Assembly: GCA_015233235.1 (NCBI GenBank)
Contig: JADFYD010000001.1
Coordinates: 43,909-88,575, forward strand
DNA length: 44,667 nucleotides
Source of the DNA: Candidatus Omnitrophota bacterium
GTDB taxonomy: Bacteria; Omnitrophota; Gorgyraeia; Tantalellales; Tantalellaceae
Direction of reading: 5' to 3'
Of the stretch, positions 1,800 through 30,269 are shown piece by piece. Position 1 is the stretch's first letter; every line of letters starts with the position of its first letter. Position numbers and translations under genes: made by a program. A model generated the notes under the pieces. That model was not told the origin of the DNA. It saw only the letters and a list, made by a program, of their open reading frames with translations, and did not search any database.

Positions 1800-3308
1800 C
1801 TATTGTGTTAACTCTTTTTTTAGAAGCTGATGCACGTTCTTCTTCTTAATGATCTCACATAAGGCCTCGACAATTTTGGGGTCGAACTGAGTCCCCGCAT
1901 TTTTCTCGAGTTCGTCTATGGCCTTATCGATAGAAAGCGCCCGGCGATACGGCTTATCCATGACCATCGCCTCAAACGCCGAAACTACGGCCATCACACG
2001 AGCTGGAAGTGGTATTTCCTCTCCTTTCAGCCCTTTAGGATAACCGGTGCCGTTATATTTCTCGTGATGGAACAGTATTATCGGAACGATCGGTTTCAAT
2101 GTTTTAGATTTTGACAGGATATCCGCGCCTTTGGAAGTGTGCGTTTTAATAATATCGAACTCTTTTCCGGTCAAACCGCTTTTTTTCATAAGAACTTTTT
2201 CGGGTATGCTGATCTGCCCGGTATCGTGCAGCATCGAAGCATACTGCATAAACTTGACCTCCGTCTCGTTCATATTGAACCTGTTTCCAATGTATGAAAA
2301 AAGCCTGAAGAACGATGTCTGCGCTTTATGCACACCCTGAGAGCGCGTCTGAAGAAGCATCGCAAGGCATTTAATGCTGCCTATCGTAAGATTTTCCTGT
2401 TCCTGATAAAGCTGGGCGTTCCGAATAGCGGTAACCGCCTGCTCCGCCATGGTTTTCATTATCTCCATGTCATCGGCCGTGAATGTCGAATTGTCTATCT
2501 TGTCATACACGGTGATAACACCCAAAACGTCCCCCTCAATAAGCGGCGTCGCCAGAAAGTTTTTACCCATGATCGAGCGGCAATATTTTACAGCCTTACC
2601 GGGAGCATATTTGCCGATCTGGACTTTTTTTAGTTTCGCTTTGGTCTTTCTGAGGTCGATAGTCGTTTTCGGCAAAAGGATCTTTTGTTTTTTATCGACA
2701 AGCTTGATCGAACAGCGGTTCGCCCTCATCACCTGCAGGGTAAGCCTTGCTATACGCGGCAGCAGTTCGTTCATGTTTAATGTGGAACTCATCAACCGGT
2801 GTACAGTATGAACGGTGGAAAGCGCGACAGCCCTAGGACGTATCGTCTCGTTAAGTTCCTCCAACTCAAGTTCAATAGAGGATTTTTTAATTAGGGATTT
2901 CAGAAAGGCCGATATCAATAGCTGCACATTGTTAGACACACGGCTCGAGTGGACCACTAAAACAACAAAACCGAATACTTTATCGTCTTCCCTTAACGGC
3001 CAGACAACACATATTTTATTCTCACCGATAGCCGAGTAACTGGAATATTGTTCTTTTTTGACTTCTTTAATTAGGCGAGCTATCTTGGAGACCGCCCCTT
3101 GAGTCAGCTTTACCTGACCGGAGCCGGAGTGGAACAGCTTGAACAATTCGGAGTCTTTATTAAGAACGGTACCGCTGAGGGCTTCCAGCTTGATCCAGGT
3201 ATGCTTGTCCAGGAACCGCTCGATTACCTTTAGTTCTTCGGAAGCATCCCAATTGTTTGAAAACCGGTAAAATATGTCCTGCAAGTGCTGCTTTTCTATT
3301 TTATTCAT
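1800..3308 (-). CDS. GAF domain / HD-GYP domain protein (putative c-di-GMP phosphodiesterase)
   Basis: Contains HDTGQISIP and HHEKYNGTGYPKGL (HD...HHExxDGxGYP signature) in the C-terminal half, with a GAF-like region upstream. The ORF track starts at a TTG (3317); I prefer the ATG at 3306-3308 (MNKIEK). Confidence 0.85.
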   Translation of the reverse strand: MNKIEKQHLQDIFYRFSNNWDASEELKVIERFLDKHTWIKLEALSGTVLNKDSELFKLFHSGSGQVKLTQGAVSKIARLIKEVKKEQYSSYSAIGENKICVVWPLREDDKVFGFVVLVVHSSRVSNNVQLLISAFLKSLIKKSSIELELEELNETIRPRAVALSTVHTVHRLMSSTLNMNELLPRIARLTLQVMRANRCSIKLVDKKQKILLPKTTIDLRKTKAKLKKVQIGKYAPGKAVKYCRSIMGKNFLATPLIEGDVLGVITVYDKIDNSTFTADDMEIMKTMAEQAVTAIRNAQLYQEQENLTIGSIKCLAMLLQTRSQGVHKAQTSFFRLFSYIGNRFNMNETEVKFMQYASMLHDTGQISIPEKVLMKKSGLTGKEFDIIKTHTSKGADILSKSKTLKPIVPIILFHHEKYNGTGYPKGLKGEEIPLPARVMAVVSAFEAMVMDKPYRRALSIDKAIDELEKNAGTQFDPKIVEALCEIIKKKNVHQLLKKELTQ

Positions 3309-3437
3309 ACCGAACAAATGTAGCGTAAATTAAGCTTAATATTGATGTTCAAAACTGCACAGAAACAAAATCCAACGCTATACTAACACAAAGTTAAAAA
3401 AAACGACAGTGAAATTTAGTTTGCCGATAAGCTTTTT

Positions 3438-17248: not shown

Positions 17249-17629
17249 TCACAGATGATGCCCTGTATAGGTCCCTACATTCGGACATGCCGGTTGTGTA
17301 GTGTAGTCGCCCACTACGTACGCAGCGCCCGTAGCACCCGTAGCCGGACAATGAGGCTGGGTTTTGATGTAATTCGGTACCAGATCTCCCGCAGCTTCCG
17401 GTGTACCAAGTGTCGGCTCGCCTGTTCCGCCGCCATCCAAAGCCCACAAAGTTTTAGCGCCGTCTATCTGCTTTAGATTGGATATGCAAGCATTCGTCTG
17501 CGCGTTCGCTTTGGCTTTGATAAAATTCGGGATCGCCACTGCCGCCAACAAACCTATAATTGCGACAACGATCATTATTTCGACGAGTGTAAATCCCTTT
17601 TCACCTCTCACCTTCCTGAACAATTTCAT
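17249..17629 (-). CDS. Type IV pilin / pseudopilin with prepilin N-terminal cleavage-methylation motif
   Basis: MKLFRKVRGEKG|FTLVEIMIVVAIIGLLAAVAIPNF is a classical class III signal peptide (G-F-T-L-x-E). An AAGGAGG RBS lies upstream. Confidence 0.9.
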   Translation of the reverse strand: MKLFRKVRGEKGFTLVEIMIVVAIIGLLAAVAIPNFIKAKANAQTNACISNLKQIDGAKTLWALDGGGTGEPTLGTPEAAGDLVPNYIKTQPHCPATGATGAAYVVGDYTTQPACPNVGTYTGHHL

Positions 17630-17809: not shown

Positions 17810-19021
17810 TTACATATTGATCAACGACGTGATCTTAAATATAGGAAGGAACATGCACATTACGATGCCGCCGATCACGACACCGAGCACGACGATGATC
17901 AGCGGCTCGATCATGCTCGTGAGGCCTTCTACCGCGGCGTCTACCTGTGTATCATAAAAATCCGCTATTTTATTGAGCATTTTTTCAAGTTGTCCGCTTT
18001 TCTCGCCTACCGCGATCATGCGCACTACCATGGTCGGAAAGATCTTGCTGGCTTCAAGCGGAGCGGCTATAGTGGCACCGTCGCGAACGCTGTTACGTAC
18101 ATCGAGAATAGCGTTCTCCAGTACAATATTTCCGGATGTCTTTGCCACAACTTCTAAAGCCCCTAGTATAGGAACACCGCTTTTTACCAGGGTCCCTAAG
18201 GTACGTGTAAATTTACTGATGGCAACTTTTCGAAGCAAAGTACCGAACACCGGTATTTTCAATTTCATTTTATCGAACGCCAAATGCCCTTTCGGCGTCT
18301 TAATGTATCCCCTTACCAAAAGGACCAAAAAGAAAACCGCGACGCTTATTATGACAATGTTTTTCTGCATGAACTCGCTTGTGTTTATAAGCATAAGTGT
18401 AGGGGTGGGCAGTTTTGCCCCGAAACTTGAAAAAACATCCTTAAAAACCGGGACAACCTTGATTATAAGTACCAACGTAATAATGAGCGCCATGCCTGTG
18501 ACAACCGCCGGATAAACCATGGCGGAGTTGACTTTTTTCTGTAACGCGCTCGTCTTTTCAATATACACCGCGATCCTTTCGAGTATGACGTCCAAAGCGC
18601 CGCTCGACTCTCCTGCCCGTATCATATTCACAAAGAGTTCGCTGAAGACCTCATAATGTTTCCCGAGCGCGTCGGAAAGATTGGAACCGGTATTGACGGA
18701 GTCTCGGGCTTCCGCGAGAGCCTTTTTAAGTTTAGGTTTCTCGACCTGATCTATCAGGATGTCCAGAGCCATTACTATCGGTATACCGGAATCGATCATC
18801 GTCGCTAACTGGCGGAACAGTATCACAAGGTCATCGGTCACAACTTTTTTTTCAAAAATATTTAAAAACCCGGTTCTGGCGTTTCCTTCTTTCTCCAGTT
18901 TCAGGACAAGCAGCTTCCTCGACTGAAGTATTTCGAGCGCGTGCTTGTTATCCTTTGCTTCCAGTTCGCCTTTCATGTTGCGGCCGGAGCGATCTTTAGC
19001 GACGTATGAAAATTTCTGCAT
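17810..19021 (-). CDS. pilC: Type IV pilus / T2SS platform protein (GspF/PilC family)
   Basis: 403 aa with two T2SSF repeats and three TM segments. The context is with pilB. Confidence 0.9.
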   Translation of the reverse strand: MQKFSYVAKDRSGRNMKGELEAKDNKHALEILQSRKLLVLKLEKEGNARTGFLNIFEKKVVTDDLVILFRQLATMIDSGIPIVMALDILIDQVEKPKLKKALAEARDSVNTGSNLSDALGKHYEVFSELFVNMIRAGESSGALDVILERIAVYIEKTSALQKKVNSAMVYPAVVTGMALIITLVLIIKVVPVFKDVFSSFGAKLPTPTLMLINTSEFMQKNIVIISVAVFFLVLLVRGYIKTPKGHLAFDKMKLKIPVFGTLLRKVAISKFTRTLGTLVKSGVPILGALEVVAKTSGNIVLENAILDVRNSVRDGATIAAPLEASKIFPTMVVRMIAVGEKSGQLEKMLNKIADFYDTQVDAAVEGLTSMIEPLIIVVLGVVIGGIVMCMFLPIFKITSLINM

Positions 19022-19044: not shown

Positions 19045-20751
19045 TTATGTCACTCTAAAAACTTCTTCAAACGTTGTATGCCCAAGGCAGGCCTGGGTAA
19101 CGGCGTTCTCTCTAAGAGTCCGAAAACCCTTGGTGCGTAAGTATCCCCTGATCTCGTTCTCCCCGGCGCGTTTTGTGATCATCGAGGCGACCTCTTTATC
19201 CACAAGAAATGACTCGACATTTCCCATCCTGCCGTAATAACCGGTATTATTGCATTTAGAGCATCCCCTGCCGCCATAAAATTTTCCCGAGTTTCTCACT
19301 TCGGGATACTTTTCTTCCAGCTCGGCTTTTAAGTTGGCAGTCATCTCGATCTCTTCCTTGCAATTCAGGCAGATCCTTCTGAGCAGCCTTTGGGCACATG
19401 CCATGACGAGGCTCGACGAGATCAGGAACGGTTCCACGCCCATGTTCACCAAACGCGTGATCGAACCGATAGAATCGTTGGTATGCAAAGTAGAAAGGAC
19501 CATGTGCCCCGTCAAAGAAGCTTTGATGGCGATATCCGCTGTTTCAAAATCTCTTATTTCGCCTATCATTATAACATCCGGCGTCTGGCGGAGTATTGCC
19601 CGGAGGGACGAGGCGAATGTGAGGCCTATACCCTGATGTACGGCAACCTGGGTTATACCGCTTACCTGGTACTCGACCGGATCCTCAACTGTAAGTATGT
19701 GCCTCTCTGGCACGTTCATCCTGTTCAGTATCGAGTACAAAGTCGTAGATTTTCCGCTGCCCGTAGGGCCGGTAATCAAAACTATGCCGAACGGACGAGC
19801 CAGAGCAGTTTTAAAATCGTCCATATTGCTCGGCAAAAAACCCATCGATTCCAATCCTATCGAAAGATTTGCTTTATCAAGGGCCCTCATTACGATCTTG
19901 TTGCCATAGATCGCGGGCAGCACCGATACCCTGAAATCGATCTCCCTATTCTCGAGTTTGACGCGGAAACGGCCGTCCTGCGGCATACGGTTCTCTGTTA
20001 TATCGAGGTTAGACATTATTTTTATACGCGCGATTACCGCGTTCTGATTCTTTTTAGGAAGGTCAAATACCTGCAGAAGTTCGCCGTCTACCCTGTAACG
20101 CACTTTTAACGTATTCTCCTGAGGCTCGATATGGATGTCACTGGCACGCCGTTTTATCGCTTCCGCGATGATAACCGTTACGATCTTGACTATCGGGGCA
20201 GCGTCAAGTTCTCCGGCCCCTATCCCGCTCATTTCAAAATCCAGACTTTGGGATACGTTCATGTCGCTCTCTCCGTCAGGACCATGGTCTAACAATTCGG
20301 TGATCTCTTCCTGGCCATGATAATATTTCCTGATCGCGGAAATTACTTCGTTCCGCGTGCAGATCGCGACGGCCACATCACACCCAGTAACAGCTTTAAT
20401 ATCATCCACGGCGAACACGTTTGTCGGGTCATAGAAAGCGACCGTAATGAACGACCCTATCTTTGAAATAGCGATCGCGTTATATTTTGTGGCGATCTTC
20501 TCAGGGATCATCCCCAAAACACTCTTGTCCACGTTTACCCGGGATAAAGCGACCATAGGTACGTTAAGTTTATCGCTTATGATCTCCGCAAGCGCAATGT
20601 CCGCGACACCGCTCATCTCAATGATCTTGGATACGAAATCTTTCTCGGAGATCCCACTTTTAGCTTTAAAAACGTCCTGAAGTTTATCTTTATCCGCAAG
20701 ACCTTTCGCGTGCAATGCCTCAATTATCTCATTTTTTATCGATGCTCTCAT
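19045..20751 (-). CDS. pilB: Type IV pilus assembly / T2SS ATPase (GspE/PilB family), copy 1
   Basis: 568 aa with an N-terminal T2SSE_N domain, Walker A GPTGSGKSTT, VEDPVEY, IGEIRDFET, the LTGHMVLSTLHTN His box, and the tetracysteine CLNC...CSKC. Confidence 0.9.
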   Translation of the reverse strand: MRASIKNEIIEALHAKGLADKDKLQDVFKAKSGISEKDFVSKIIEMSGVADIALAEIISDKLNVPMVALSRVNVDKSVLGMIPEKIATKYNAIAISKIGSFITVAFYDPTNVFAVDDIKAVTGCDVAVAICTRNEVISAIRKYYHGQEEITELLDHGPDGESDMNVSQSLDFEMSGIGAGELDAAPIVKIVTVIIAEAIKRRASDIHIEPQENTLKVRYRVDGELLQVFDLPKKNQNAVIARIKIMSNLDITENRMPQDGRFRVKLENREIDFRVSVLPAIYGNKIVMRALDKANLSIGLESMGFLPSNMDDFKTALARPFGIVLITGPTGSGKSTTLYSILNRMNVPERHILTVEDPVEYQVSGITQVAVHQGIGLTFASSLRAILRQTPDVIMIGEIRDFETADIAIKASLTGHMVLSTLHTNDSIGSITRLVNMGVEPFLISSSLVMACAQRLLRRICLNCKEEIEMTANLKAELEEKYPEVRNSGKFYGGRGCSKCNNTGYYGRMGNVESFLVDKEVASMITKRAGENEIRGYLRTKGFRTLRENAVTQACLGHTTFEEVFRVT

Positions 20752-20778
20752 ATGTATACCCGGAAACTTTTTCGCGGT

Positions 20779-22482
20779 TTAAGTCGTGATCCTCAATATT
20801 TCTTCAAGCGAAGTTATACCTTTAAGTACACTTTCTATGCCATTAGCACGGAGCGGCACCATCCCTTCTTTTCTTGCTTCTCTCTCTATTTCTAGTTCCT
20901 GCGCGCCTTTAAAAAGCAATTCCCGTATAGCCGAAGACATCGGCAGACACTCGACAACGACCATCCTTCCGGAATACCCGAGGTTCGTGCAGCGCGGACA
21001 CCCTTTGGGTTTGAAAATCACGGCCGGGTCTCCCTTTTCATCAAGCAAACCAAATTTTTCGGCTGCCTCTTTTGGTAAGACATATGGTTCTTTACATTCA
21101 GAACATAATTTCCGGGCCAGACGTTGAGCGATAAATAACTCGACAGAAGAGGCGATAAGAAAAGGTTCAACTCCCATATTACGCATACGTACCACAGATC
21201 CGGCGGCAGTATTCGTGTGCAACGTGCTTAAGACCAAGTGGCCCGTAAGAGCGGCCTTGATCGCGATGTCGACTGTCTCAAAATCCCTTATTTCACCGAT
21301 GAGTATAACGTCCGGGTCCTGCCGCAATATGGACCTCAGGCACCCCGCGAATGTGAGCCCTATATCGGCATTAATATTGACCTGGTTCATGCCGGAAAGT
21401 TCGTATTCGACCGGATCTTCTACCGTCACAAAATTCTTGGCGGGTGAGTATATGTGTCTCAATACCGAGTAAAGTGTGGTAGTCTTGCCGGAACCCGTCG
21501 GGCCGCACGCAAGGATCATCCCGTGCGGTTTAATGCCCGCGGATATGATTGTGTTTTTATCGCGTTCGGAAAGTCCCAGTCGGTTAATATCAGTCAATCC
21601 CTGGCCTTTATCCAGTATCCTGAGACAGGCCTTTTCTCCGATGATCGAAGGAAGCACAGACAATCGGAAATCAACTTTTCGCCCTTCTACCGTCATCTGA
21701 AAACGTCCGTCCTGGGGCACACGCCGCTCGGCAATATTCAAATTGGACATTATCTTAAGCCGGGAAATGAGGGGTGCGTGGTATTTTTTTGGAGGTACGT
21801 GTTTTATCTGCAGCATACCGTCTATCCTGTATCTTACGCGAAAAGAATTCTCCATAGGCTCTACTAAAATGTCGCTGGCCTTTTCGATTACACCCTGACT
21901 CAATATCATGTTCGTAAGTTTTATGACGGGTGTCTCGTCCATTATTTTCAGGATCTCGCCGGAGGAAAGTTCTCTTTCTTCCTCGACCATCTCCATTTCG
22001 GCGTACGCCATGCCTTCAACTATCTGGCTCATCTCTTCATCGGCGGATTTTTCATAATATTTTACGATGAATTCGGCGATCTCACCCGCATCGGCGACAA
22101 CGGGGTTTATGTCGCACCCCGTCACGGTTTTCATATCGTCCATTGCGAAAATATTCAGCGGGTCCGCAAGCGCCACCGTCATGAATTTACCAACTTTAGA
22201 TACCGGGAACGCCTGATACATCGAGGCAAAACGTTTGGGCAACGCGGTTATGAGGGCTTTATCAACGTGTAATTTTGAAAGTCTTACCGGAACGGCCCGC
22301 GCGATCTCGGCAAGCGCGGAAAGATATTCTTCGCCGGTGACAAATTTAAGTTTAAGTAAGGCCTCACCCAGACTTCCGCCCTGTTTTGCCGCATTTTCAC
22401 GCACGAGGGCCATATCGCCCGGAGAAAGCTTCCCTTTCAGAAGCAAAAGTTCGCAGATCTTTTCAGTTAGCGCTATAGACAT
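20779..22482 (-). CDS. Type IV pilus assembly / T2SS ATPase (GspE/PilB family), copy 2
   Basis: 567 aa with the same architecture as copy 1: GPTGSGKTTT, VEDPVEY, IGEIRDFET, LTGHLVLSTLHTN, CSEC...CPRC. Confidence 0.9.
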   Translation of the reverse strand: MSIALTEKICELLLLKGKLSPGDMALVRENAAKQGGSLGEALLKLKFVTGEEYLSALAEIARAVPVRLSKLHVDKALITALPKRFASMYQAFPVSKVGKFMTVALADPLNIFAMDDMKTVTGCDINPVVADAGEIAEFIVKYYEKSADEEMSQIVEGMAYAEMEMVEEERELSSGEILKIMDETPVIKLTNMILSQGVIEKASDILVEPMENSFRVRYRIDGMLQIKHVPPKKYHAPLISRLKIMSNLNIAERRVPQDGRFQMTVEGRKVDFRLSVLPSIIGEKACLRILDKGQGLTDINRLGLSERDKNTIISAGIKPHGMILACGPTGSGKTTTLYSVLRHIYSPAKNFVTVEDPVEYELSGMNQVNINADIGLTFAGCLRSILRQDPDVILIGEIRDFETVDIAIKAALTGHLVLSTLHTNTAAGSVVRMRNMGVEPFLIASSVELFIAQRLARKLCSECKEPYVLPKEAAEKFGLLDEKGDPAVIFKPKGCPRCTNLGYSGRMVVVECLPMSSAIRELLFKGAQELEIEREARKEGMVPLRANGIESVLKGITSLEEILRITT

Positions 22483-22504
22483 AAAAACGGGAACCGATCA
22501 AAGG

Positions 22505-22942
22505 TTAATAGATCTTTTTAATTTTACCGAGAATATCAGAACGAAGACCGATGAACGTACGTATCTTTTTGTTTGTGGTCTTTTCAAGTTCCGAAATAGT
22601 GCCTTTATCGAGCGGATTAGCGATGGCAATGACCAGGATCTCGCCGATGAGGTCCAGCGGAACGCATTCACATTTGACGGCAGTTTCCCCACCCAGACAT
22701 TTAACGGCTTCGGCGTTAATATCGTAACTGTCTGTGTTGATAAAAGGAAATCCGTATTGATCGATGAGGGCCTGCACAATGTCCGCGTCGGAGACTACAC
22801 CCATTTTTATCAGAATATCCCCTATGACAGCGTTCGATGTTTTTTGTATCTCCAGCGCTTTATTAAGATTATCACGGGTTATAGTCCCGCGTTTAATAAG
22901 CAGCTCTCCTATTTTTTCGTCATTTTTCCGTTCAAAAAACAC
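22505..22942 (-). CDS. Stand-alone T2SSE_N / MshEN domain protein (putative c-di-GMP receptor)
   Basis: 145 aa with a GTG start at 22940-22942 and a GGAAG RBS. The tandem 24-aa motifs KIGELLIKRGTITRDNLNKALEIQ and VIGDILIKMGVVSDADIVQALIDQ are separated by 5 aa. The rest matches the C-terminal part of the GspE N-domain. There is no ATPase domain. Confidence 0.75.
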   Translation of the reverse strand: MFFERKNDEKIGELLIKRGTITRDNLNKALEIQKTSNAVIGDILIKMGVVSDADIVQALIDQYGFPFINTDSYDINAEAVKCLGGETAVKCECVPLDLIGEILVIAIANPLDKGTISELEKTTNKKIRTFIGLRSDILGKIKKIY

Positions 22943-22954
22943 TTCTACACTTCC

Positions 22955-24037
22955 TTATTTACTGATAATACCCATGCTATGCACCAATTTTTTGAACTCT
23001 TCCACATCGGTGGACCTCGCCACTGCCTCTTCAAAAGTTATGATCTTTTTATAACAAAGCTCGGCAAGCGACTGATTCATTGTTCTCATACCGCTTTGCT
23101 TTGAAGTTTGGAGGACCGAATATATCTGATGCCCCCTTTCTTCCCTTATCATGGTTTTTACCGGAGGAGTAGCCACAAGTATTTCAGCGGCCAACACCCT
23201 TCCGGCAGATCCGGCACGCGGTATAAGCTGCTGCGAAATTATGCCGAGGAGTACAAAGGAAAGCTGTGTCCTGATCTGGTTTTGCTGGTATTCGGGAAAG
23301 ACGTCAATGATACGGTTCATGGTTTGTATGGCATCAGATGTATGCAGTGTCCCGAGCACCAGGTGGCCGGTATCGGCAATAACAAGCGCCTGCTGTATAC
23401 TTTCAAAATCCCTGAGCTCCCCGATAAGTATTACATTGGGGTCCTGCCTCAAAACATGCCTCAACGCGTTGTGAAAGGAAAACGTGTCAAAAAGCACCTC
23501 TCTTTGGTCGATCAGAGCCTTTTTATTGGCATGAACATATTCGATCGGGTCTTCGACCGTAACGATATGGCACGCTCGGTTGGCATTAATGTAGTCGATC
23601 ATTGCGGCAAGCGAGGTAGATTTACCGCTTCCTGTGGCGCCGGTAACAAGCACTAACCCTTTTGGCTTGTTACAGAAAGCCTTAACTATCTCCTCCGGCA
23701 ATCCGCACTCTGAGATACTGCGTATTTTGTCGGGTATCAACCTTATCGCGCAGCCGATACGCGCTCTTTGATAGAACACGTTAGCGCGGTAACGCGCGAC
23801 GCCTTCTATGGATAGGGCGAAATCAAGTTCTTTTTCTTTTCTGAATTTTTCAGCCTGCGTTTCGGACATCAAACTGAATATATATTCTTCCGCCTGTTTT
23901 TCACTGACGGGTGAATCGCCTATTTTTATCAAAACTTCGTCGATCCTGTAACGCAAAAAATCATTTGAAGTTATATGCACGTCGGAAGCGTTTTTCGGGG
24001 CCATATCACGCAGGACTTTCTCGATGTATGCGTTCAT
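22955..24037 (-). CDS. pilT: Twitching-motility retraction ATPase PilT family
   Basis: GATGSGKSTS, VEDPIEY, IGELRDFES and GHLVLGTLHTSDA, at a PilT-like length. I prefer the ATG at 24035-24037 (MNAYIEK), which has an AGGAG RBS. The track ORF extends to 24088. Confidence 0.9.
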   Translation of the reverse strand: MNAYIEKVLRDMAPKNASDVHITSNDFLRYRIDEVLIKIGDSPVSEKQAEEYIFSLMSETQAEKFRKEKELDFALSIEGVARYRANVFYQRARIGCAIRLIPDKIRSISECGLPEEIVKAFCNKPKGLVLVTGATGSGKSTSLAAMIDYINANRACHIVTVEDPIEYVHANKKALIDQREVLFDTFSFHNALRHVLRQDPNVILIGELRDFESIQQALVIADTGHLVLGTLHTSDAIQTMNRIIDVFPEYQQNQIRTQLSFVLLGIISQQLIPRAGSAGRVLAAEILVATPPVKTMIREERGHQIYSVLQTSKQSGMRTMNQSLAELCYKKIITFEEAVARSTDVEEFKKLVHSMGIISK

Positions 24038-24124
24038 CTCGTCTCCTCTTTTAATATTATTACCCGCTTGTAATATTACCCTACTCACCAGTGAAAGTCA
24101 AAAATGGCGTTATGTAATATGCGT

Positions 24125-24291: not shown

Positions 24292-26046
24292 CTACTTATA
24301 AAATCCACTTTCAAGTAATTCGGACTTCAATTTTGCAACATCCGTCCCAACATCGATATGTCCCCACGGAAGAGGGTCTTCAAGCGGAATAAACCTGGCG
24401 GCTTCCTTACTAAGATCTCGCCCGTTCTCCTTGAACGCCTCGTCCCAAATGGAGAAGTTGAAAAATTCCGGCCAGGCATCGAACCTGGCGCCTTTTTTCC
24501 AGGCGGAGAATATTATTTTTCCCGTCAGTCTATCGCCGCGGGATAAGGCCCCCTCTAGAAGAGATTTTGGAACATCGTGCACTTCGAACTTGAGACGTTT
24601 ATACTTTTTCCCTAAAAGGATATCTTTCTGACGAGAAAAGAAATTTTCGTCTTGCATGCCAAGCCATTGAAAAGGAGTATGAGGTTTTGGCACAAAAGGG
24701 TTAATACTTGCCTTGATCTCGGCCGGTCCCTTTCCAACACGGGTACGAAGTTGCGATATAGTTTCGGTCCACTTGCAAATGCTGGATATTTCTTTTTCGG
24801 GATCGCCGGGGAAACCTATCATAAAGTATAATTTTAATTTTTCCCAACCGTGTGTGTAAGCTTCAAGCACCGATTTGCAAAAAATATCAAAGTTGGTTTC
24901 TTTCCCTATCGCCTTTTGCAATTCCATAAGAGCCGTCTCCGGCGCGAAAGTCAGACTTGTTTTTTTAATTATGGCTATCATTTCAGGGACCTCATAGAAC
25001 GATTCGTCTATTCGAAGCGACGGGATGGATAAACCTACTCCGTATTTCTCAAATGTTCCGTTGAGCGCTTTTATAAGTTCGGCCAAATACGGATAATTCA
25101 CGCTTGAAAGGGACAATAAACTTATCTGGTTATGCCCTGTATGCTTATATGTTTCTAAGCACTTGTTTATAATTGTCTCAACTTTACGCAACCTTAAGGG
25201 TCTTGAAATATACCCCGCCTGGCAGAACCGGCATCGATTGGGGCATCCTCGCATAATTTCCATGCTTATCCTGTCGTGGATAACCTTAATGTACGGGACT
25301 AACTGCTTGACCGGATAATAAGCTTTATCCAGATCCATTACCGCACGCTTTTTAATGCAGGCGGGAGCGCCGTCTGTGAGACGATTCAATCCCTTGAACA
25401 TATTTCCTTCGTACTCGCCAGAATAAAAACGCGGGACATAGATCCCTTCGATCCCGGAAAGCCGCAGTAATTTATCGTTGCGACTCATGTTCGTGTTTTT
25501 CATGGAAGCATACATTTCCATAAATTCAGGCAAAAGTTCCTCAGCGTCGCCGATCACAAAAATATCAATGAAGTCCGACATGGGCTCGGGGTTACAGTTC
25601 GCCCCTCCCCCCGCTACCACGATCGGTTCATCCTCTTTGCGGTCTTTCGACAATATTGAGACATCGGACAAACTCAGCATATTGAGAATATTCGTGCAGT
25701 TAAGCTCATAAGTCATGGAAAATCCGAAAAAATCGAATTCTCGCACTGGTTTTTTGGATTCTAGCGTAAAAAGCGGTATTCCCTCTTTTTTCATTTCCGC
25801 TTCCATGTCATGCCAAGGGGCGAAAACCCTTTCGCAATTCACGTTTTCGATCTCGTTCAGTAGGTGATAAACGGTCACAAGCCCCAGGTGACTCATGCCG
25901 ATCTCGTAAATATCGGGGAACGCCAACGCGAAAGAGATGGTGTCGGTTTTAAAGAGTTTGCGTACGCTGTTGATCTCGCCGCCGATATATCGCCCGGGCT
26001 TATGCACTTTCTGGAGGATTTGAGTGAGGATGCTCATCGTGTTCAT
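24292..26046 (-). CDS. B12-binding-domain radical SAM protein (TIGR03960-like)
   Basis: 584 aa. The N-terminus LQKVHKPGRYIGGEINSVRK is typical of this family, and the radical SAM cluster is CPNRCRFC. It overlaps the rodA start by 4 nt. Confidence 0.85.
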   Translation of the reverse strand: MNTMSILTQILQKVHKPGRYIGGEINSVRKLFKTDTISFALAFPDIYEIGMSHLGLVTVYHLLNEIENVNCERVFAPWHDMEAEMKKEGIPLFTLESKKPVREFDFFGFSMTYELNCTNILNMLSLSDVSILSKDRKEDEPIVVAGGGANCNPEPMSDFIDIFVIGDAEELLPEFMEMYASMKNTNMSRNDKLLRLSGIEGIYVPRFYSGEYEGNMFKGLNRLTDGAPACIKKRAVMDLDKAYYPVKQLVPYIKVIHDRISMEIMRGCPNRCRFCQAGYISRPLRLRKVETIINKCLETYKHTGHNQISLLSLSSVNYPYLAELIKALNGTFEKYGVGLSIPSLRIDESFYEVPEMIAIIKKTSLTFAPETALMELQKAIGKETNFDIFCKSVLEAYTHGWEKLKLYFMIGFPGDPEKEISSICKWTETISQLRTRVGKGPAEIKASINPFVPKPHTPFQWLGMQDENFFSRQKDILLGKKYKRLKFEVHDVPKSLLEGALSRGDRLTGKIIFSAWKKGARFDAWPEFFNFSIWDEAFKENGRDLSKEAARFIPLEDPLPWGHIDVGTDVAKLKSELLESGFYK

Positions 26047-27134
26047 CGTTTTCTTTCCCTGCTGATGCTCAGCAAAAACCCTATGCCCGTCATGAACGCT
26101 AAAGCGTTAGAACCGCCATAGCTTATGAGAGGTAATGGTATCCCAACTACCGGCATGAGACCGACCGTCATCGAAATATTCGTGACAACCTGGAACGCGA
26201 TGAGCGTAACAAAGCCCGTCGCCATCACTTTTCCGTAAACATCGTCAAGTCCCGCGATTATTTTAATTCCGCGGATCACTATGACCGCGTAGAGCGATAT
26301 CACCACAAGCGCGCCCACAAAACCCCATTCCTCGCCTATTACGGAGAAAATGAAATCGTTGTGCCTCTCAGGCAGGAATTTCAGATGGCTTTGCGTACCG
26401 TTCAGCCATCCTTTCCCCAAAAGACCTCCGGACCCTATAGCGATCTTTGACTGAATTATAGTGTACCCCGCGCCCAACGGGTCCGCGTTCGGATTAATAA
26501 AAACTGTCAGTCGTGTTTTTTGATAAGTTTTAAGAAAATGCCAGAAGATCGGCATACATGCCCCGCCGATCGCGAAAGTACCGAGAATGTACTTTATATT
26601 TTCTCCGTTTATAAGAAGTATCGCGAAAAGGACCGGCACCAAGAGCAGCGCAGTGCCGAGGTCAGGCTGTACGAGTATCAGCAAAAAAGCCGGCCCCACA
26701 AGTAAAAGAGAAAATAAGAAATTGCTGAAGGACCCGACTCGCTCTTTTCGATCGCCCAAAAAAGCCGCGAGCACAAAAATAATGCTCACCTTAGCGAATT
26801 CAGACGGCTGCAACGATAAAAACCCAAGATCCAACCACCTCTTCGCGCCGTAGCGCTCGCCGGCAAACAATAAAACGGCAAGGAGTAAAATAATATTCAC
26901 AAAATAAAAAATGTAGGCATAGTTCAAGACGTAGATATACTCTAAGTTAGCGATTAAAAAAAGTACCGCGACGCTAATCCCTACCCACATGATCTGCTTT
27001 AATACAAGCGGGCTGACCGCCACGGACGAACCTTTCACCGTGGTCGCGCTGTAAACAAAAATTATACCGAGCAAAGCGATAAAAAGCGCCGCCCCCAACA
27101 TTATTTTATCTATTCTGCCTCTGCCCGGTCTCAC
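26043..27134 (-). CDS. rodA: Rod shape-determining protein RodA (SEDS family)
   Basis: 363 aa polytopic FtsW/RodA pattern (PSEFAK, GLMPVVGIPLPLISYGGS). It has a GTG start with a GGAGGG RBS and lies downstream of mrdA. Confidence 0.9.
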   Translation of the reverse strand: MRPGRGRIDKIMLGAALFIALLGIIFVYSATTVKGSSVAVSPLVLKQIMWVGISVAVLFLIANLEYIYVLNYAYIFYFVNIILLLAVLLFAGERYGAKRWLDLGFLSLQPSEFAKVSIIFVLAAFLGDRKERVGSFSNFLFSLLLVGPAFLLILVQPDLGTALLLVPVLFAILLINGENIKYILGTFAIGGACMPIFWHFLKTYQKTRLTVFINPNADPLGAGYTIIQSKIAIGSGGLLGKGWLNGTQSHLKFLPERHNDFIFSVIGEEWGFVGALVVISLYAVIVIRGIKIIAGLDDVYGKVMATGFVTLIAFQVVTNISMTVGLMPVVGIPLPLISYGGSNALAFMTGIGFLLSISRERKR

Positions 27135-27156
27135 TATCCCTCCGTCTAAAAATTAT

Positions 27157-27172
27157 CCTATGCCCTATGCCC
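27157..27172. repeat. Second copy of the CCTATGCCCTATGCCC heptamer-repeat motif
   Basis: The 16-mer is identical to 14209-14224. It lies 8 nt after the mrdA stop codon. Confidence 0.85.
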
Positions 27173-27179
27173 ATTCTAT

Positions 27180-28901
27180 CTACTCCAGCAATCCAAGTTC
27201 TTTCGCTTTTTTGAACACTTTGCCGGCGATCTCGGCGGCGTAATGCCCGCCCAAACCACCTGACTCGTCTAATACGACTACCGAGAGTTTCGGTTTTTCA
27301 AAAGGCGCGAACGCGACAAACCAGCCGTGTGTTTTGCCGCCGGACACCTGCGCCGTACCGGTTTTGCCGGCGACAACAAAATCCGGCGAAGCGGCATTAT
27401 TACCGGTGCCGCCCTGCTCATTTACGCACCTTCGCATGCCTTCACGCACAAGGTCCACGGTATTGGCTCCGAGCCCCACGGAAATCGGCTCACTGGGACA
27501 GATCTTTAGATCTCCTATTTGCCTTATCATGAACGGTTTCACCAAATTTCCGTTGTTCGCGAATACACTCGCCATGCGCAGTACCTCGATCGGGGTAGCG
27601 AGCAAAAAACCCTGACCAATCGAAAAATTGGCCGTATCGCCCGGATACCAATTCTCCTTTTTCTGGAGCATTTTCATTTGCCTGTCAGGCACCACGCCCT
27701 TAACTTCACCCGGAAGGTCTATGTTTGTAATGTTCCCCAAACCGAATTTAGACGCGTATTGCGCTATTCCCTCGACATCGATCGCAAGCCCCGCCCTATA
27801 AAAAAACACGTCGCATGAATTTTTGAGCGCGTCCGAAAGCACTTGAACGCCGTGACCTGCTTTTTCCCAGCATCCGAATACACGCCTGCCGATGGTTATC
27901 CCTCCGGTGCAGACCACCTCGGTCCGAGCGTTAATTTTTCCTTCTTCGAGCGCGCCCGACGCCACGACAAGTTTAAATACCGACCCGGGCGGATATTTCG
28001 CCGCAACGGCCCTATCAAGGAGCACCGGTACCCCGGAACACATAACTTCAACTCTTTCTTTCTGTCTTTTTCTATCAATAAATATCTCAGGATCATATGA
28101 CGGGCTGCTGAAAAGCGCCCTAATTTCGCCGGTCCCGGGGTCCATAGCGATAACGGCGCCTCTCCTGTCAGAGAAGATCTCCGAAACATACTCCTGCAAG
28201 TCGCTGTCTATCGTAAGATACACGTTCTTTCCCGGTACCGGTTCCTTATATCCCAGAACCGACACTTCACGTCCGCGATGGTCGACTTCAACGTCTTTTC
28301 CGCCGTCTTCTCCCTTCAGATAAGTATCACACACACTTTCTACACCGCTTCTGCCAATATAATCTGATATCTCATAACCGTAAGGTTTTAACTTTTCGAG
28401 TTCCTTCTGTGTCGGTAGACCTATATATCCGGTTATGTGCCCAGCAGCTTTTCCGAGAAAATATTTGCGCCGCGTGGAAACCTGCAGAATAAGACCGGGA
28501 TGATCGGTAATGATCTCCTCCAACTGTATCGCCGCCTGCATACCGATATCTTTTCTTATAACGTACGGGACATACGGCATTGTCCTGCCCTTAGCGATCG
28601 TCATCCTGACCTCATCGGTAGTGGAATCGAGAAGCTCGGCAAGGGCCTGAACCAGCTTTTCCCTGTCTCTTATTTCACTGTGTATAACGGCGGCATCAAA
28701 GCTAAGAATATCTTTCGCGATTATTTTGCCGGTCCTGTCAATAATAGTGCCGCGCGGGGCCAAAAGCGGAAGAACGCGCAGTCGGTTTTTCTCTGACATG
28801 ATCTTATAAGCGCGGTGCTGCAGAATTTGGGTATGAAATAAACCCGATACCAAAAACACAAGAAAGACTAAAAGTATCCTGGAAAATATTTTAAGCCTCA
28901 T
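27180..28901 (-). CDS. mrdA: Penicillin-binding protein 2 (elongasome transpeptidase)
   Basis: 573 aa with an N-terminal TM helix, a PBP dimerisation domain, a transpeptidase domain with SVFK (SxxK) and KTGTA, and mreCD-rodA context. Confidence 0.9.
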   Translation of the reverse strand: MRLKIFSRILLVFLVFLVSGLFHTQILQHRAYKIMSEKNRLRVLPLLAPRGTIIDRTGKIIAKDILSFDAAVIHSEIRDREKLVQALAELLDSTTDEVRMTIAKGRTMPYVPYVIRKDIGMQAAIQLEEIITDHPGLILQVSTRRKYFLGKAAGHITGYIGLPTQKELEKLKPYGYEISDYIGRSGVESVCDTYLKGEDGGKDVEVDHRGREVSVLGYKEPVPGKNVYLTIDSDLQEYVSEIFSDRRGAVIAMDPGTGEIRALFSSPSYDPEIFIDRKRQKERVEVMCSGVPVLLDRAVAAKYPPGSVFKLVVASGALEEGKINARTEVVCTGGITIGRRVFGCWEKAGHGVQVLSDALKNSCDVFFYRAGLAIDVEGIAQYASKFGLGNITNIDLPGEVKGVVPDRQMKMLQKKENWYPGDTANFSIGQGFLLATPIEVLRMASVFANNGNLVKPFMIRQIGDLKICPSEPISVGLGANTVDLVREGMRRCVNEQGGTGNNAASPDFVVAGKTGTAQVSGGKTHGWFVAFAPFEKPKLSVVVLDESGGLGGHYAAEIAGKVFKKAKELGLLE

Positions 28902-29392
28902 AAAACACGCCGCGCATAAAATGTTCTATTGAGCATTTGAAAAAATATCGGGGCCGCTACCACGGTCGTAAGAAGTTTCCTCCAGCTTCCGCTAAAAACC
29001 CCGCCCGCACCGTCGAAACTCTCATGAAAGATTTTTATGGATACGGAATCGACAAGAATAAGGCACAAAAAAGCGATCCCTGTCACTATCATATCCATAG
29101 CCGGGCTTTCTTTATCCAAAAGACGCGCGAGCGAATACACAAAGAAAACTATCAGTAAACACGCAAAAATATCGGCGATGATGAACCCGTATGAAAATAT
29201 CCCCCGAAAAGTCCCCGCGATGACGCTCATAATTATACCGTCCCGCAAACCGCAAAAACTCGCGGTGAAAACAACAAGTAGAAGTAACAGATCAGGAACC
29301 CACACCGCCCATTTTGCGGGAGTCACGGCTAAAAAAGCGGATAACAGCAACGTATAACTTAACGCATGTCTTTTAAAGTGGTCACTTTTCAT
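28898..29392 (-). CDS. mreD: Rod shape-determining protein MreD
   Basis: 164 aa polytopic membrane protein positioned between mreC and mrdA. The call is mainly positional. Confidence 0.7.
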   Translation of the reverse strand: MKSDHFKRHALSYTLLLSAFLAVTPAKWAVWVPDLLLLLVVFTASFCGLRDGIIMSVIAGTFRGIFSYGFIIADIFACLLIVFFVYSLARLLDKESPAMDMIVTGIAFLCLILVDSVSIKIFHESFDGAGGVFSGSWRKLLTTVVAAPIFFQMLNRTFYARRVL

Positions 29393-29400
29393 AGCTTTTT

Positions 29401-30234
29401 CTAAGAAGCGCTTTTCGTCTCCGGAGCGGTTTGGGCTTCTTTATCGGGTTGTTTCGAAACGCACAAGACTTCTTCCTCGCCAGTAAGATCTGCCGCCAAG
29501 TCTATGTCTGCAACCTTAAAAAGCCCGGTACTATCTTTTCCTATCCCCGATATCTTGCCTATAATTATCCCTTCCGGAAATATCCGACTGAGTTTTGACG
29601 TAACAACCGTCGCGCCTACGTTTACATTTTCGTCCATCGGAATATAAAGCATTTTCGCGTGCGCCGATCCGGCACCTGTCACAACACCGCTTACACGACC
29701 TGCCAGCGTGACGCCGCCGGCCTTAAAATCGGGATTGGCGAGTAAGAGAACCATACTTTCGTTTTCCCACACCTCTACTATCTTTCCGAGCAGTCCTTTC
29801 GAAGAGCATACGGCGGTTTCGGTCGAGAGACCATCTTTTTCGCCTTTATTGATGATCACCGATCCCATCCAATCGTTGGGATCCCTAGCGACTATTTCGG
29901 CGGATATAGCGGTAAAGTTATGTCTTTCTTTGAAAGCTTCCAGCGCGCGCAGTCTTTTGTTTTCGTCAAGGATGTCTTCGGATTGATGAAATTTTAACGT
30001 AAGTTCGGCAACTTTACCGCGCAGAAGACGGTTCTCCAGCACAAGCCGCTTTTTATCATAAAAGTACAGTGTTACTTGGCCGTAAACCTTGGCGGGAAGA
30101 GTAAAGAACCAGACGGCACCGGATTTGCATTTGTAACGTACGGAAGGGAAGCACGCCAGCACGAGCAGGATAAGCGCCGCGAGGATGACTATTTGTCGAT
30201 TTCTGAACCTATTGAAAAATAATGGCGTAGGCAC
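29401..30234 (-). CDS. mreC: Rod shape-determining protein MreC
   Basis: 277 aa with an N-terminal TM helix, a coiled-coil (ENRLLRGKVAEL...NKRLRAL) and beta-barrel domains (VVTSKLSRIFPEGIIIGKI). Confidence 0.85.
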   Translation of the reverse strand: MPTPLFFNRFRNRQIVILAALILLVLACFPSVRYKCKSGAVWFFTLPAKVYGQVTLYFYDKKRLVLENRLLRGKVAELTLKFHQSEDILDENKRLRALEAFKERHNFTAISAEIVARDPNDWMGSVIINKGEKDGLSTETAVCSSKGLLGKIVEVWENESMVLLLANPDFKAGGVTLAGRVSGVVTGAGSAHAKMLYIPMDENVNVGATVVTSKLSRIFPEGIIIGKISGIGKDSTGLFKVADIDLAADLTGEEEVLCVSKQPDKEAQTAPETKSAS

Positions 30235-30269
30235 ATTTAGAGTTGACGGATACGTTCAATGTTTTTATG

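Follow-up and report, generated by a model that had tools for sequence, protein, structure and literature searches.

A stand-alone MshEN protein with a tandem c-di-GMP motif encoded upstream of tandem pilB genes in Omnitrophota

A small MshEN gene within a type IV pilus operon

We analyzed a 44,667-nucleotide stretch of DNA from a Candidatus Omnitrophota bacterium (contig JADFYD010000001.1), referred to here as the window, which carries the genes of a type IV pilus motor on its minus strand. The features considered below are:

22505..22942, minus strand: stand-alone MshEN protein (the small ORF), 145 aa, GTG start; MshEN_N four-helix subdomain and MshEN_C (T2SSE_N), without ATPase
22757..22915, minus strand: two 24-residue c-di-GMP half-motifs with a 5-residue spacer (residues 10-62 of the small ORF)
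22955..24088, minus strand: PilT retraction ATPase, 377 aa; TIGR01420 445.5 bits, cutoff 319
20779..22482, minus strand: PilB-a (earlier "copy 2"), 567 aa, MshEN-T2SSE assembly ATPase; T2SSE 437 bits, TIGR02538 597 bits
19045..20751, minus strand: PilB-b (earlier "copy 1"), 568 aa, MshEN-T2SSE assembly ATPase
17810..19021, minus strand: PilC platform protein (T2SSF); PF00482 212.5 bits
17249..17629, minus strand: type IV pilin with N-terminal methylation motif (PF07963)
1800..3317, minus strand: GAF-HD-GYP protein, candidate c-di-GMP phosphodiesterase; HD_5 137.7 bits and a GAF match

The gaps in the operon are tight, with 12 nt between the pilT stop codon and the start of the small ORF and 22 nt between the small ORF and the start of PilB-a, and a Shine-Dalgarno-like AAGGAAG ahead of the small ORF overlaps the pilT stop codon. 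The small ORF is thus probably co-transcribed with pilT, the two pilB genes and pilC, and probably translationally coupled. PilB-a and PilB-b of the window are 44% identical. No PilZ or EAL gene was present in the pilus operon and no diguanylate cyclase was found in the window, where the only c-di-GMP turnover gene is that for the GAF-HD-GYP protein, located 19 kb away from the pilus operon; its translation shows HD and HHEKYNGTGYP motifs.

In the preliminary description of this DNA the small ORF had been read as a free-standing MshEN domain, and both profile searches and structure prediction agreed with that reading. Pfam PF05157 (MshEN) matched residues 63-145 with 46.7 bits, above its cutoff of 23.1, and NCBIfam NF053729 (c-di-GMP_motif), a curated model of 53 positions, matched residues 10-62 over its full length (model positions 1-53) with 58.7 bits (cutoff 38). 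The claim that the ATPase domain is missing also held, since T2SSE (PF00437) gave no profile match to the ORF, which ends at residue 145; TIGR02538 was matched over model positions 1-135 of 564 with nothing beyond. The AlphaFold (AF2) model, with a pLDDT of 90.5, placed four helices in residues 11-63 followed by a beta/alpha unit, and Foldseek aligned this model to V. cholerae MshEN with c-di-GMP (5htl_A) with a TM of 0.83/0.86 and an rmsd of 2.3 A. Other Foldseek matches were to GspE with GspL (2bh1/4pht) and to PilB with PilZ (7lko). Together, these data indicated that the small ORF encodes a complete MshEN protein that stands alone, its tandem motif intact, and nothing else, whereas ATPases of the MshE/PilB/GspE type carry a T2SSE domain.

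The c-di-GMP motif in the small ORF and in the two PilB ATPases

The motif (R/K/L)LGxx(L/V/I)(L/V/I)xxG(L/V/I)(L/V/I)xxxxLxxxLxxQ, taken twice with a 5-residue spacer, was compared with the small ORF position by position. Half-motif 1 spans K10-Q33 (KIGELLIKRGTITRDNLNKALEIQ) and half-motif 2 spans V39-Q62 (VIGDILIKMGVVSDADIVQALIDQ), with exactly five residues, K34-A38 (KTSNA), between them, as had been described from the letters alone. By our own position count, which accepts the Thr found at position 11 in half 1, 21/22 motif positions were matched; G3, the hydrophobic residues at 6-7, G10, L/I17, L21 and Q24 are all kept in both halves, as previously noted. For comparison, 2000 shuffles of the same protein matched 10.4 +/- 1.1 positions, with a maximum of 15. 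The MshEN domain of V. cholerae MshE (5HTL) shares with the small ORF the two-subdomain fold, the tandem 24+5+24 motif and Gly3, Gly10, Leu17, Leu21 and Gln24 in both halves, and differs from it in having Arg/Arg at position 1, where the small ORF has Lys/Val, and in lacking the position-11 Thr of half-motif 1. Substitutions of V. cholerae MshEN at two glycines are known to be severe, G11L abolishing c-di-GMP binding and G40I weakening it 72-fold, and the MshEN_N subdomain in isolation still binds c-di-GMP.

The single motif miss in the small ORF falls in half 2, where V39 occupies position 1. This position calls for a residue that can stack on guanine, for which Arg, Lys and Leu are validated by experiment. 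The preliminary description had counted Lys/Val at position 1 as a departure from the canonical motif, an assessment that we revise: the GSPII-B domain of Thermus thermophilus PilF has Lys and Leu at position 1 and binds c-di-GMP at 6 nM, and the consensus has been widened to (R/K/L) (PMC11731258). In an alignment to this domain, K10 of the small ORF stands opposite K167 and V39 opposite L196, so that the small ORF resembles GSPII-B there, Lys in half 1 being a validated residue and Val in half 2 standing where the validated residue is Leu.

The corresponding region of PilB-a reads KICELLLLKGKLSPGDMALVRENA / AKQGG / SLGEALLKLKFVTGEEYLSALAEI, as quoted earlier, and was rightly described as degraded. 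It matches 14/22 motif positions and scores 19.7 bits with NF053729, below the cutoff of 38, with G3 replaced by Cys, Q24 by Ala, G10' (the prime marks half 2) by Lys and Q24' by Ile. For PilB-b, in which no G3/G10 pattern had been seen, the count was 11/22, which is chance level, and NF053729 gave no match, so that a c-di-GMP motif is not recognizable there.

Orthologues and gene neighborhood across Omnitrophota

A word-indexed homology search with the single small ORF protein returned only itself, and relatives were gathered by an exhaustive HMMER search together with a profile search. The genome scan yielded at least 536 encoded relatives, the best 80 loci of which were all from Omnitrophota, and the search with the family profile yielded 2518 clusters at E<=1e-10, the top 120 of which were nearly all 140-170 aa long. 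At least 70 Omnitrophota species have an orthologue of about 149 aa (~145-153) directly upstream of a tandem pilB-pilB-pilC. The survey for ATPase-less MshEN ORFs beside pilB that the preliminary description had proposed showed pilB as the next gene after the small gene in 72/72 informative loci, 61 of which have another pilB after the first, and in 9 more the place of that second pilB falls beyond the contig end. This fixed place directly upstream of pilB-pilB-pilC agrees with a function at the pilus motor. In one locus (L085) the mshEN-pilB-pilB-pilC module lies in another neighborhood, with pilS/pilR. The tandem-PilB motor is itself conserved in the phylum. A PilB-PilB fusion of 1173 aa in a further locus (L069), which might have given support for a PilB hetero-oligomer, proved spurious, arising from a stretch of N.

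These orthologues also bear on whether the small ORF is the cut-off 5' end of a third pilB or the remains of one in decay, an origin that its exact correspondence to the first ~145 residues of PilB, its GTG start (weaker than ATG) and the PilB name that several orthologues carry at JGI would suggest. All of the 70 orthologues, from different species, are of ~145-153 aa and end in a stop codon of their own, and the downstream pilB carries a complete N-domain itself, to which the small ORF is only 20% identical. Conservation is highest among the stand-alone proteins, with a median identity of 60%, compared with 47% and 40% in the N-domains of the two PilBs. The stand-alone, PilB-a and PilB-b N-domains fall into three orthologous groups, in which the best non-self match is always within the same class. 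A severed pilB gene, which the preliminary description had named as the case that would overturn its reading, is effectively refuted by this uniform length, separate class and lack of relaxed constraint.

Conservation of single residues separated the classes further. In the first half of the stand-alone proteins G3 is kept in 68/71, G10 in 58/71, L17 in 65/71, L21 in 65/71 and Q24 in 70/71, and in the second half G3' and Q24' are each kept in 66/71, so that the ligand contacts of these proteins appear to be under selection; most orthologues have Gln at position 1 of half-motif 1. Gly3 was found in none of the PilB N-domains (0/71 PilB-a, 0/61 PilB-b), and G3' in 3/71 PilB-a. We had expected the motif HMM to split stand-alone proteins cleanly from PilB proteins, but it did not: about the cutoff was reached by 70/70 stand-alone proteins but also by 59/71 PilB-a and 26/60 PilB-b N-domains. 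The contrast between stand-alone proteins and PilB therefore rests on specific residues and not on score. Accordingly, the earlier statement that the neighboring PilB N-domains have lost the motif stands for Gly3, which is gone lineage-wide, and has to be narrowed otherwise, since the loss is residue-specific and many of these domains still reach the HMM cutoff; both PilB copies of the window are more degraded than the average among relatives. As judged from their sequences, the neighboring PilB N-domains keep the fold and have lost key ligand-contacting residues. With many PilB-a above the cutoff and Ser/Thr in place of Gly3, Omnitrophota PilB N-domains might retain weak c-di-GMP binding.

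The same counts weigh on a structural role without signaling, in which the motif would hold the bundle together or bind another nucleotide (3'3'-cGAMP) and the protein would stabilize a PilB-a/PilB-b hetero-oligomer in the manner of PilZ. PilZ does stabilize the PilB N1D in Xanthomonas without binding c-di-GMP, VcMshEN binds cGAMP (weakly), and neither the window nor, in most relatives, the operon showed an active cyclase. The strongest constraint, however, falls exactly on the ligand contacts G3, G10, L17, L21 and Q24 in both halves, and the MshEN fold does not appear to need these contact residues, because the paralogous PilB N-domains keep the fold without them. HD-GYP genes with intact motifs are moreover present in the operon or window, and we consider a purely structural accessory very unlikely.

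With regard to the source of the ligand, in 59 related loci a GAF-GGDEF gene lies ahead of the small gene, and in 39 it is the immediate upstream neighbor, with overlapping coding regions in one of them (L001); it is missing in about 9 loci, this window included. Of the GAF-GGDEF proteins examined in relatives, 49/52 are without GG[DE]EF, and an RxxD I-site was found in none. The GAF-GGDEF protein of relatives is thus, by its motifs, mostly a degenerate pseudo-cyclase, and therefore synteny gives no c-di-GMP source. The idea that it serves as a dedicated diguanylate cyclase for local signaling was dropped on these grounds. In 21 related loci the operon itself includes an HD-GYP gene in which both motifs, HD and GYP, are intact. 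The presence of a conserved GAF pseudo-cyclase beside the stand-alone MshEN gene is noted here as an observation in its own right.

These neighbors raise the question of whether the protein is a receptor with a target other than PilB, such as PilT, the pseudo-GGDEF/GAF protein or an unrelated output, its operon place reflecting co-regulation only. In this window pilT is directly upstream, the pseudo-GGDEF gene is immediately upstream in the loci counted above, and stand-alone MshEN genes are not confined to the vicinity of pilB, one lying beside FHA and sigma-54 genes (L086). Against this, the sole invariant neighbor is pilB, pilT adjoining the small gene in 25 loci and GGDEF being absent from several, and extra MshEN units are naturally fused to T2SSE assembly ATPases. 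A target unconnected with PilB is in our view unlikely.

A candidate c-di-GMP receptor subunit of the pilus motor

We propose, at about even chances, that the product of the small ORF is a free-standing subunit of the type IV pilus motor of Omnitrophota, dedicated to c-di-GMP reception. Judging from the fold predicted for it and from the residues it conserves, its N-terminal four-helix bundle would bind one c-di-GMP via both half-motifs, and, as synteny and natural fusions suggest, the loaded protein would then act either on the assembly of PilB-a and PilB-b or at the site where this docks on the inner-membrane platform. The small protein would in this way supply the second-messenger input that elsewhere is mostly built into the N-terminal domain of PilB itself, as a split form of the multi-MshEN-ATPase layout of Thermus PilF and other (MshEN)2-4-T2SSE proteins. 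The suggestion of c-di-GMP sensing in trans, already made in the preliminary description, is strengthened, though unproven, because orthologues are conserved beside pilB-pilB and Gly3 is lost in both PilB paralogues. Natural fusions agree with a pilus-motor role: the nearest HMMER relatives are (MshEN)2-4-T2SSE proteins, and multi-MshEN-ATPase fusions are tabulated in Wang 2016 (Supplementary Table 4). A partner other than PilB could be PilT, PilC, PilM or the pseudo-GGDEF protein.

An opposite sign of action has to be weighed here, in which the free N1-type domain mimics the docking domain of PilB and, gated by c-di-GMP, competes for a platform or stator site (PilM/PilC or equivalent). Such a decoy would occupy the docking site of PilB, and pilus extension would therefore be inhibited or timed rather than PilB activated. 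The full N1D fold is present, including MshEN_C, which is the partner-binding surface in GspE and PilB; PilB N1Ds are thought in the literature to contact the stator, inhibitors of extension are known to occur naturally, CpiA among them, and the small gene lies between pilT and pilB in the 25 loci mentioned. Sequence does not tell activation from inhibition, but in fused multi-MshEN ATPases (PilF) c-di-GMP binding favors twitching and adhesion, and the strict stoichiometric co-occurrence with two pilB genes suits a subunit equally well. We regard a decoy or brake as somewhat unlikely.

The receptor-subunit reading can be set against several known systems, and the earlier remark that no characterized precedent is known for an in-trans arrangement was too strong: FimX/PilZ control PilB in trans, stand-alone MshEN proteins are abundant, and P. 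aeruginosa has PA3740. A search of the literature on stand-alone, single-domain or orphan MshEN proteins, and on c-di-GMP in Omnitrophota, returned nothing relevant. T. thermophilus PilF, a (MshEN/GSPII)3-ATPase (8PDK), likewise devotes extra MshEN units to one pilus ATPase, mixes binding and non-binding MshEN domains (a mixture that is predicted here), and in GSPII-B has Lys and a hydrophobic residue at position 1 as in the small ORF; loss of c-di-GMP binding at GSPII-B leads to less twitching and adhesion. In PilF, however, the units are fused in cis, whereas here a gene of its own encodes the unit predicted to bind, and it is the units attached to the ATPases that are degenerate. In the FimX-PilZ-PilB system of Xanthomonas and Pseudomonas, too, a separate protein senses c-di-GMP and relays to a PilB N-domain that does not itself bind it (PMC8389850), but in that system sensing falls to a degenerate GGDEF-EAL protein that works via the PilZ adaptor, and here it is proposed to fall to a paralogue of the PilB N-domain. 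PA3740, which combines MshEN_N with a divergent T2SSE_N1, is likewise a small MshEN protein without an ATPase; it figures among listed c-di-GMP binders and has a motility phenotype. Its C-terminal subdomain, unlike that of the small ORF, is highly divergent, and it is not described in a pilB operon. E. coli NfrB-DgcJ offers an MshEN receptor paired with a dedicated GGDEF protein, there both genetically and physically, but there the cyclase DgcJ is active and the MshEN forms part of a glycosyltransferase fusion, whereas the Omnitrophota GGDEF protein is mostly degenerate and is missing in this window.

A wider and more tentative proposal, which we hold possible, is that the Omnitrophota type IV pilus has a three-part extension motor flanked by a GAF pseudo-cyclase and an HD-GYP phosphodiesterase as a self-contained local signaling unit. 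If the three-part motor is real, the second-messenger switch of a secretion-superfamily ATPase would be a separable, exchangeable subunit, which would constitute a new regulatory architecture. Omnitrophota are mostly ultra-small and are thought to be host-attached or predatory. How c-di-GMP binding at a PilB-type N-domain is coupled to pilus extension is described as unresolved in recent reviews and structural papers. With the putative sensor as a separate 145-aa protein and ATPase copies that lack the ligand glycines, the Omnitrophota motor would provide a natural separation-of-function system, in which the sensor could be purified, titrated, mutated and then returned to the motor in vitro. 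The family represents a phylum-wide candidate c-di-GMP receptor in Omnitrophota, now annotated as hypothetical or mislabeled as PilB. In JGI records several orthologues bear the label "type IV pilus assembly protein PilB."

A stand-alone MshEN gene in the pilus operon

The window derives from a Candidatus Omnitrophica/Omnitrophota metagenome-assembled genome, and the product of its small ORF (22505-22942, minus strand; GTG start, 145 aa) was identical in a homology search to NCBI HQL28_00425, annotated as a 'hypothetical protein'. The preliminary description had read this ORF as a free-standing MshEN domain with two half-motifs and the 5-residue spacer KTSNA, exactly the arrangement found. NF053729, the NCBIfam model of the 53-position MshE-type c-di-GMP motif, matched residues 10-62 end to end with 58.7 bits (curated cutoff 38), and PF05157 (Pfam MshEN) spanned residues 63-145. 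The ORF carries 21 of 22 motif positions, whereas 2000 shuffles gave 10.4 ± 1.1 (at most 15). The AlphaFold2 model, based on 43 homologues (mean pLDDT 90.5), has four helices and then a beta/alpha unit; its closest structures were c-di-GMP-bound V. cholerae MshEN (VcMshEN; 5HTL, TM 0.83/0.86, rmsd 2.3 Å), and c-di-GMP-bound PilF GSPII-B was also among the best matches. By its profile matches, tandem motif and predicted fold, the small ORF is assigned to the MshEN family, and the initial reading was confirmed by motif model, domain profile, position count and fold. Pfam/NCBIfam profile searches found no ATPase domain in the small ORF, and for this reason it is not a PilB.

The pilus genes of the window form one tightly packed operon, located directly downstream of an mreB/C/D-PBP2-rodA and radical-SAM block (24292-31328, minus strand).

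Genes of the pilus operon and the adjoining upstream block
30270-31328, minus: mreB
29401-30234, minus: mreC
28898-29392, minus: mreD-like
27180-28901, minus: PBP2
26043-27134, minus: rodA
24292-26046, minus: radical-SAM gene (Radical_SAM_N2)
22955-24088, minus: pilT
22505-22942, minus: small ORF (stand-alone MshEN)
20779-22482, minus: pilB (PilB-a, 'copy 2' of the preliminary description)
19045-20751, minus: pilB (PilB-b, 'copy 1')
17810-19021, minus: pilC
17249-17629, minus: pilin

The small ORF begins 12 nt after pilT and ends 22 nt before pilB-a; an AAGGAAG element ahead of it overlaps the pilT stop codon, and the ORF is apparently coupled within the operon. On the plus strand, a 289-aa TTG ORF (22235-23104) opposite pilB-a, the small MshEN gene and pilT resembles a shadow ORF. 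At the window edge, a 492-aa ORF adjoining ddl (43173-44651, minus strand) contains Mur_ligase_C, FAD_binding_4 and MurB_C and looks like a Mur ligase-MurB fusion.

Conservation and genetic context in Omnitrophota

Whether the small ORF is the severed 5′ end of a pilB was addressed by an orthologue survey. HMMER, run exhaustively against 1.84 billion cluster representatives, returned 14,120 relatives at E ≤ 1e-3; about 35 of the best 150 were single-domain proteins of 145-185 aa, which align end to end and share a common finish at a conserved C-terminal Tyr. A profile of these single-domain relatives retrieved 2518 clusters at E ≤ 1e-10, and almost all of the best 120 were 140-170 aa long, the named ones being Omnitrophica/Omnitrophota entries called 'hypothetical protein' or 'type IV pilus assembly protein PilB', a label that is wrong for single-domain proteins. 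A scan covering one genome for each GTDB species identified at least 536 encoded relatives; the best 80 loci all came from Omnitrophota MAGs, of which some carry a Planctomycetia label in the database. Three separate best-hit classes emerged, namely the stand-alone proteins and the N-domains of PilB-a and of PilB-b. The stand-alone class was the most conserved (median identity 60%, versus 47 and 40% for the N-domains of PilB-a and PilB-b, respectively), and the small ORF shares only 20% identity with the N-domain of the neighboring pilB. Given the conserved same-length relatives, the separate class and this low identity, a broken pilB was rejected; the small ORF is an old, selected gene and not debris, and the chance that it is a pseudogene is negligible.

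ORFs were called in all fetched related loci and labeled by BLASTP against the window proteins. ATPase-less MshEN genes recur beside pilB: pilB directly followed the small gene in 72 loci, with a second pilB next in 61 of them (in 9 more the contig was too short to tell) and pilC after the tandem pair. Upstream of the small gene was a GAF-GGDEF gene immediately adjacent (39 loci), GAF-GGDEF then pilT (20 further loci), pilT without a GGDEF gene (5 loci, window included) or rodA (4 loci), and linkage to the upstream mreCD-PBP2-rodA-radical-SAM block was kept in most related loci. In 21 loci, the second pilB and pilC flanked an HD_5 (HD-GYP) gene whose HD and GYP motifs were both intact (e.g., L066:10947-12020). 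In the metagenome locus L085 (7001-14486), the mshEN-pilB-pilB-pilC module occupies another neighborhood, with pilS/pilR downstream; a STAS-PilZ gene is situated 4 kb upstream of it. At L086:771-1208, a stand-alone MshEN gene has genes for FHA and sigma-54 activator proteins as neighbors and lacks an accompanying pilB.

In several loci (L008, L015, L019, L033, L036, L053, L065), the second pilB is separated from pilC by a further small MshEN gene, about 151-167 aa in length; in the six scored (L065 left out), the first half-motif was intact and the second mostly degenerate. In the complete Omnitrophota chromosome CP070797 (L001/L013, 7001-8377), all that follows the small gene is a short MshEN-T2SSE ORF of 297-375 aa. 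Neither a second pilB nor pilC comes after it, and this locus may represent a decayed or divergent version of the module. The 1173-aa PilB-PilB fusion that L069:7321-10842 seemed to encode was an artefact of a run of N bridging two genes.

Predicted ligand-contacting residues of the stand-alone protein and the PilBs

Residues were compared after placing every protein in its best motif register (stand-alone, n = 71; PilB-a, n = 71; PilB-b, n = 61).

Retention of motif residues (primes mark the second half-motif)
G3: stand-alone 68/71; PilB-a 0/71 (Thr, Lys, Cys); PilB-b 0/61 (Ile, Leu, Val)
G10: stand-alone 58/71; PilB-a 13/71 (mostly Lys); PilB-b 13/61 (mostly Lys)
L17: stand-alone 65/71; PilB-a 64/71; PilB-b 42/61
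L21: stand-alone 65/71; PilB-a 47/71; PilB-b 43/61
Q24: stand-alone 70/71; PilB-a 55/71; PilB-b 40/61
G3′: stand-alone 66/71; PilB-a 3/71 (mostly Ser); PilB-b 12/61
G10′: stand-alone 63/71; PilB-a 27/71; PilB-b 29/61
I17′ (L17′ in PilBs): stand-alone 66/71; PilB-a 64/71; PilB-b 45/61
L21′: stand-alone 61/71; PilB-a 56/71; PilB-b 32/61
Q24′: stand-alone 66/71; PilB-a mostly Gly; PilB-b 21/61

The same contrast was seen in L085. In VcMshEN, G11L abolishes c-di-GMP binding, G40I weakens it 72-fold, and replacing a single Leu or Gln by Ala lowers it 10-38-fold (Wang et al., 2016, Supplementary Table 1). Together, these data indicate that constraint on the stand-alone protein falls on predicted ligand contacts, without which the PilB paralogues hold the fold. 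A structural accessory that binds no c-di-GMP, or another nucleotide, is improbable given this pattern. The earlier claim that the neighboring PilBs have lost the motif stood for the window, where the motif-region sequences were as quoted, PilB-a scored 19.7 bits against NF053729 (below the cutoff of 38) and PilB-b gave no score; in the lineage as a whole, with the E-value set to match the curated cutoff, 59/71 PilB-a and 26/60 PilB-b N-domains passed the motif HMM, as did 70/70 stand-alone proteins. The predicted loss is therefore residue-specific, and the window's PilB-a and PilB-b are more eroded than is typical of the lineage.

Lys10 and Val39 were initially taken as deviations from Arg at position 1. 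In the HMMER alignment they lie opposite K167 and L196 of Thermus PilF GSPII-B, which binds c-di-GMP at 6 nM, 83-fold tighter than VcMshEN, with K167L at 2 nM and both K167R and L196R weakening binding (PMC11731258). As judged from this alignment, the small ORF may thus resemble the high-affinity GSPII-B-like subclass at position 1; the motif consensus has been widened to (R/K/L)LG... (PMC11731258). In most orthologues, position 1 of the first half-motif is Gln preceded by Lys.

Proposed role of the stand-alone protein

The complete MshEN fold and motif, the invariable adjacency to the tandem pilB pair and the selection on ligand-contacting residues make c-di-GMP sensing in trans, as first proposed, the best-supported reading, although by inference. 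The small protein would sense c-di-GMP for the extension motor, with PilB-a/PilB-b or the site at which they dock as its target, a proposal to which we give an even chance. The isolated MshEN_N subdomain binds c-di-GMP by itself, and T2SSE ATPases are known with extra MshEN units fused to them, as (MshEN)2, (MshEN)3 and (MshEN)4; such multi-unit fusions were the top-scoring HMMER relatives of the small ORF, and the arrangement may be a split form of this architecture. In PilF only a subset of the units binds c-di-GMP, and twitching and adhesion are promoted when GSPII-B does so. The main rival, a c-di-GMP-gated brake in which the free N1-type domain would vie with PilB for the surface where PilB docks, is unlikely, if the strongest of the alternatives. 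Sequence does not decide the sign of the effect, activation or brake. Another target, such as PilT or the pseudo-GGDEF protein, whose genes often lie upstream, is rather doubtful beside the constant pilB linkage.

A GAF-GGDEF gene precedes the small gene in 59 related loci (e.g., L002:5546-6991, L003:4468-5883, L001:5689-7011). It was rejected as a dedicated cyclase: 49 of 52 examined are without GG[DE]EF (variants include RFGDNDF and RFDRDLF), RIGGDEF being kept only in L025, L060 and L064, and neither the RxxD I-site nor the Asn and Asp that contact GTP are present in the family consensus. Its product is thus a predicted pseudo-cyclase, which weakens one line of support for local c-di-GMP signaling. 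Profile searches found no pilus-linked GAF-GGDEF gene and no GGDEF domain anywhere in the window. The window does encode a GAF-HD-GYP protein (1800-3317, minus strand) with HD and HHEKYNGTGYP motifs.

Among known systems, functionally the closest include the multi-GSPII N-terminus of PilF, with the same parts but fused, and FimX-PilZ-PilB, with the same logic but different parts; the conserved pseudo-cyclase partner recalls the degenerate GGDEF domain of FimX. The preliminary description gave no characterized precedent for sensing in trans. P. aeruginosa PA3740, however, is an MshEN receptor that, like the small ORF, has no ATPase: in Wang et al. it appears as MshEN_N with a divergent T2SSE_N1, its binding of c-di-GMP having been demonstrated by experiment. 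Receptors of this kind are therefore not unprecedented. A 2024 review lists PilZ, FimX, CpiA and phage peptides as PilB cofactors and no free MshEN protein, and searches of published full text turned up no publication on free-standing MshEN proteins in pilus operons, nor any on c-di-GMP signaling in Omnitrophota. At the sequence level the feature had been read correctly; it is real and conserved, and what appears new is a proposed split MshEN receptor with a tandem, putatively ligand-blind PilB pair, phylum-wide in Omnitrophota. Its components and overall logic were known before, and the organism has not been cultivated, but for a mechanistic question that is still open the small ORF and PilBs provide a separation-of-function system that is both clean and testable. 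The tandem full-length pilB paralogues (19045-22482, minus strand, and 61 related loci) form two distinct orthologous groups, 44% identical in the window, and the extension motor could possibly be hetero-oligomeric.
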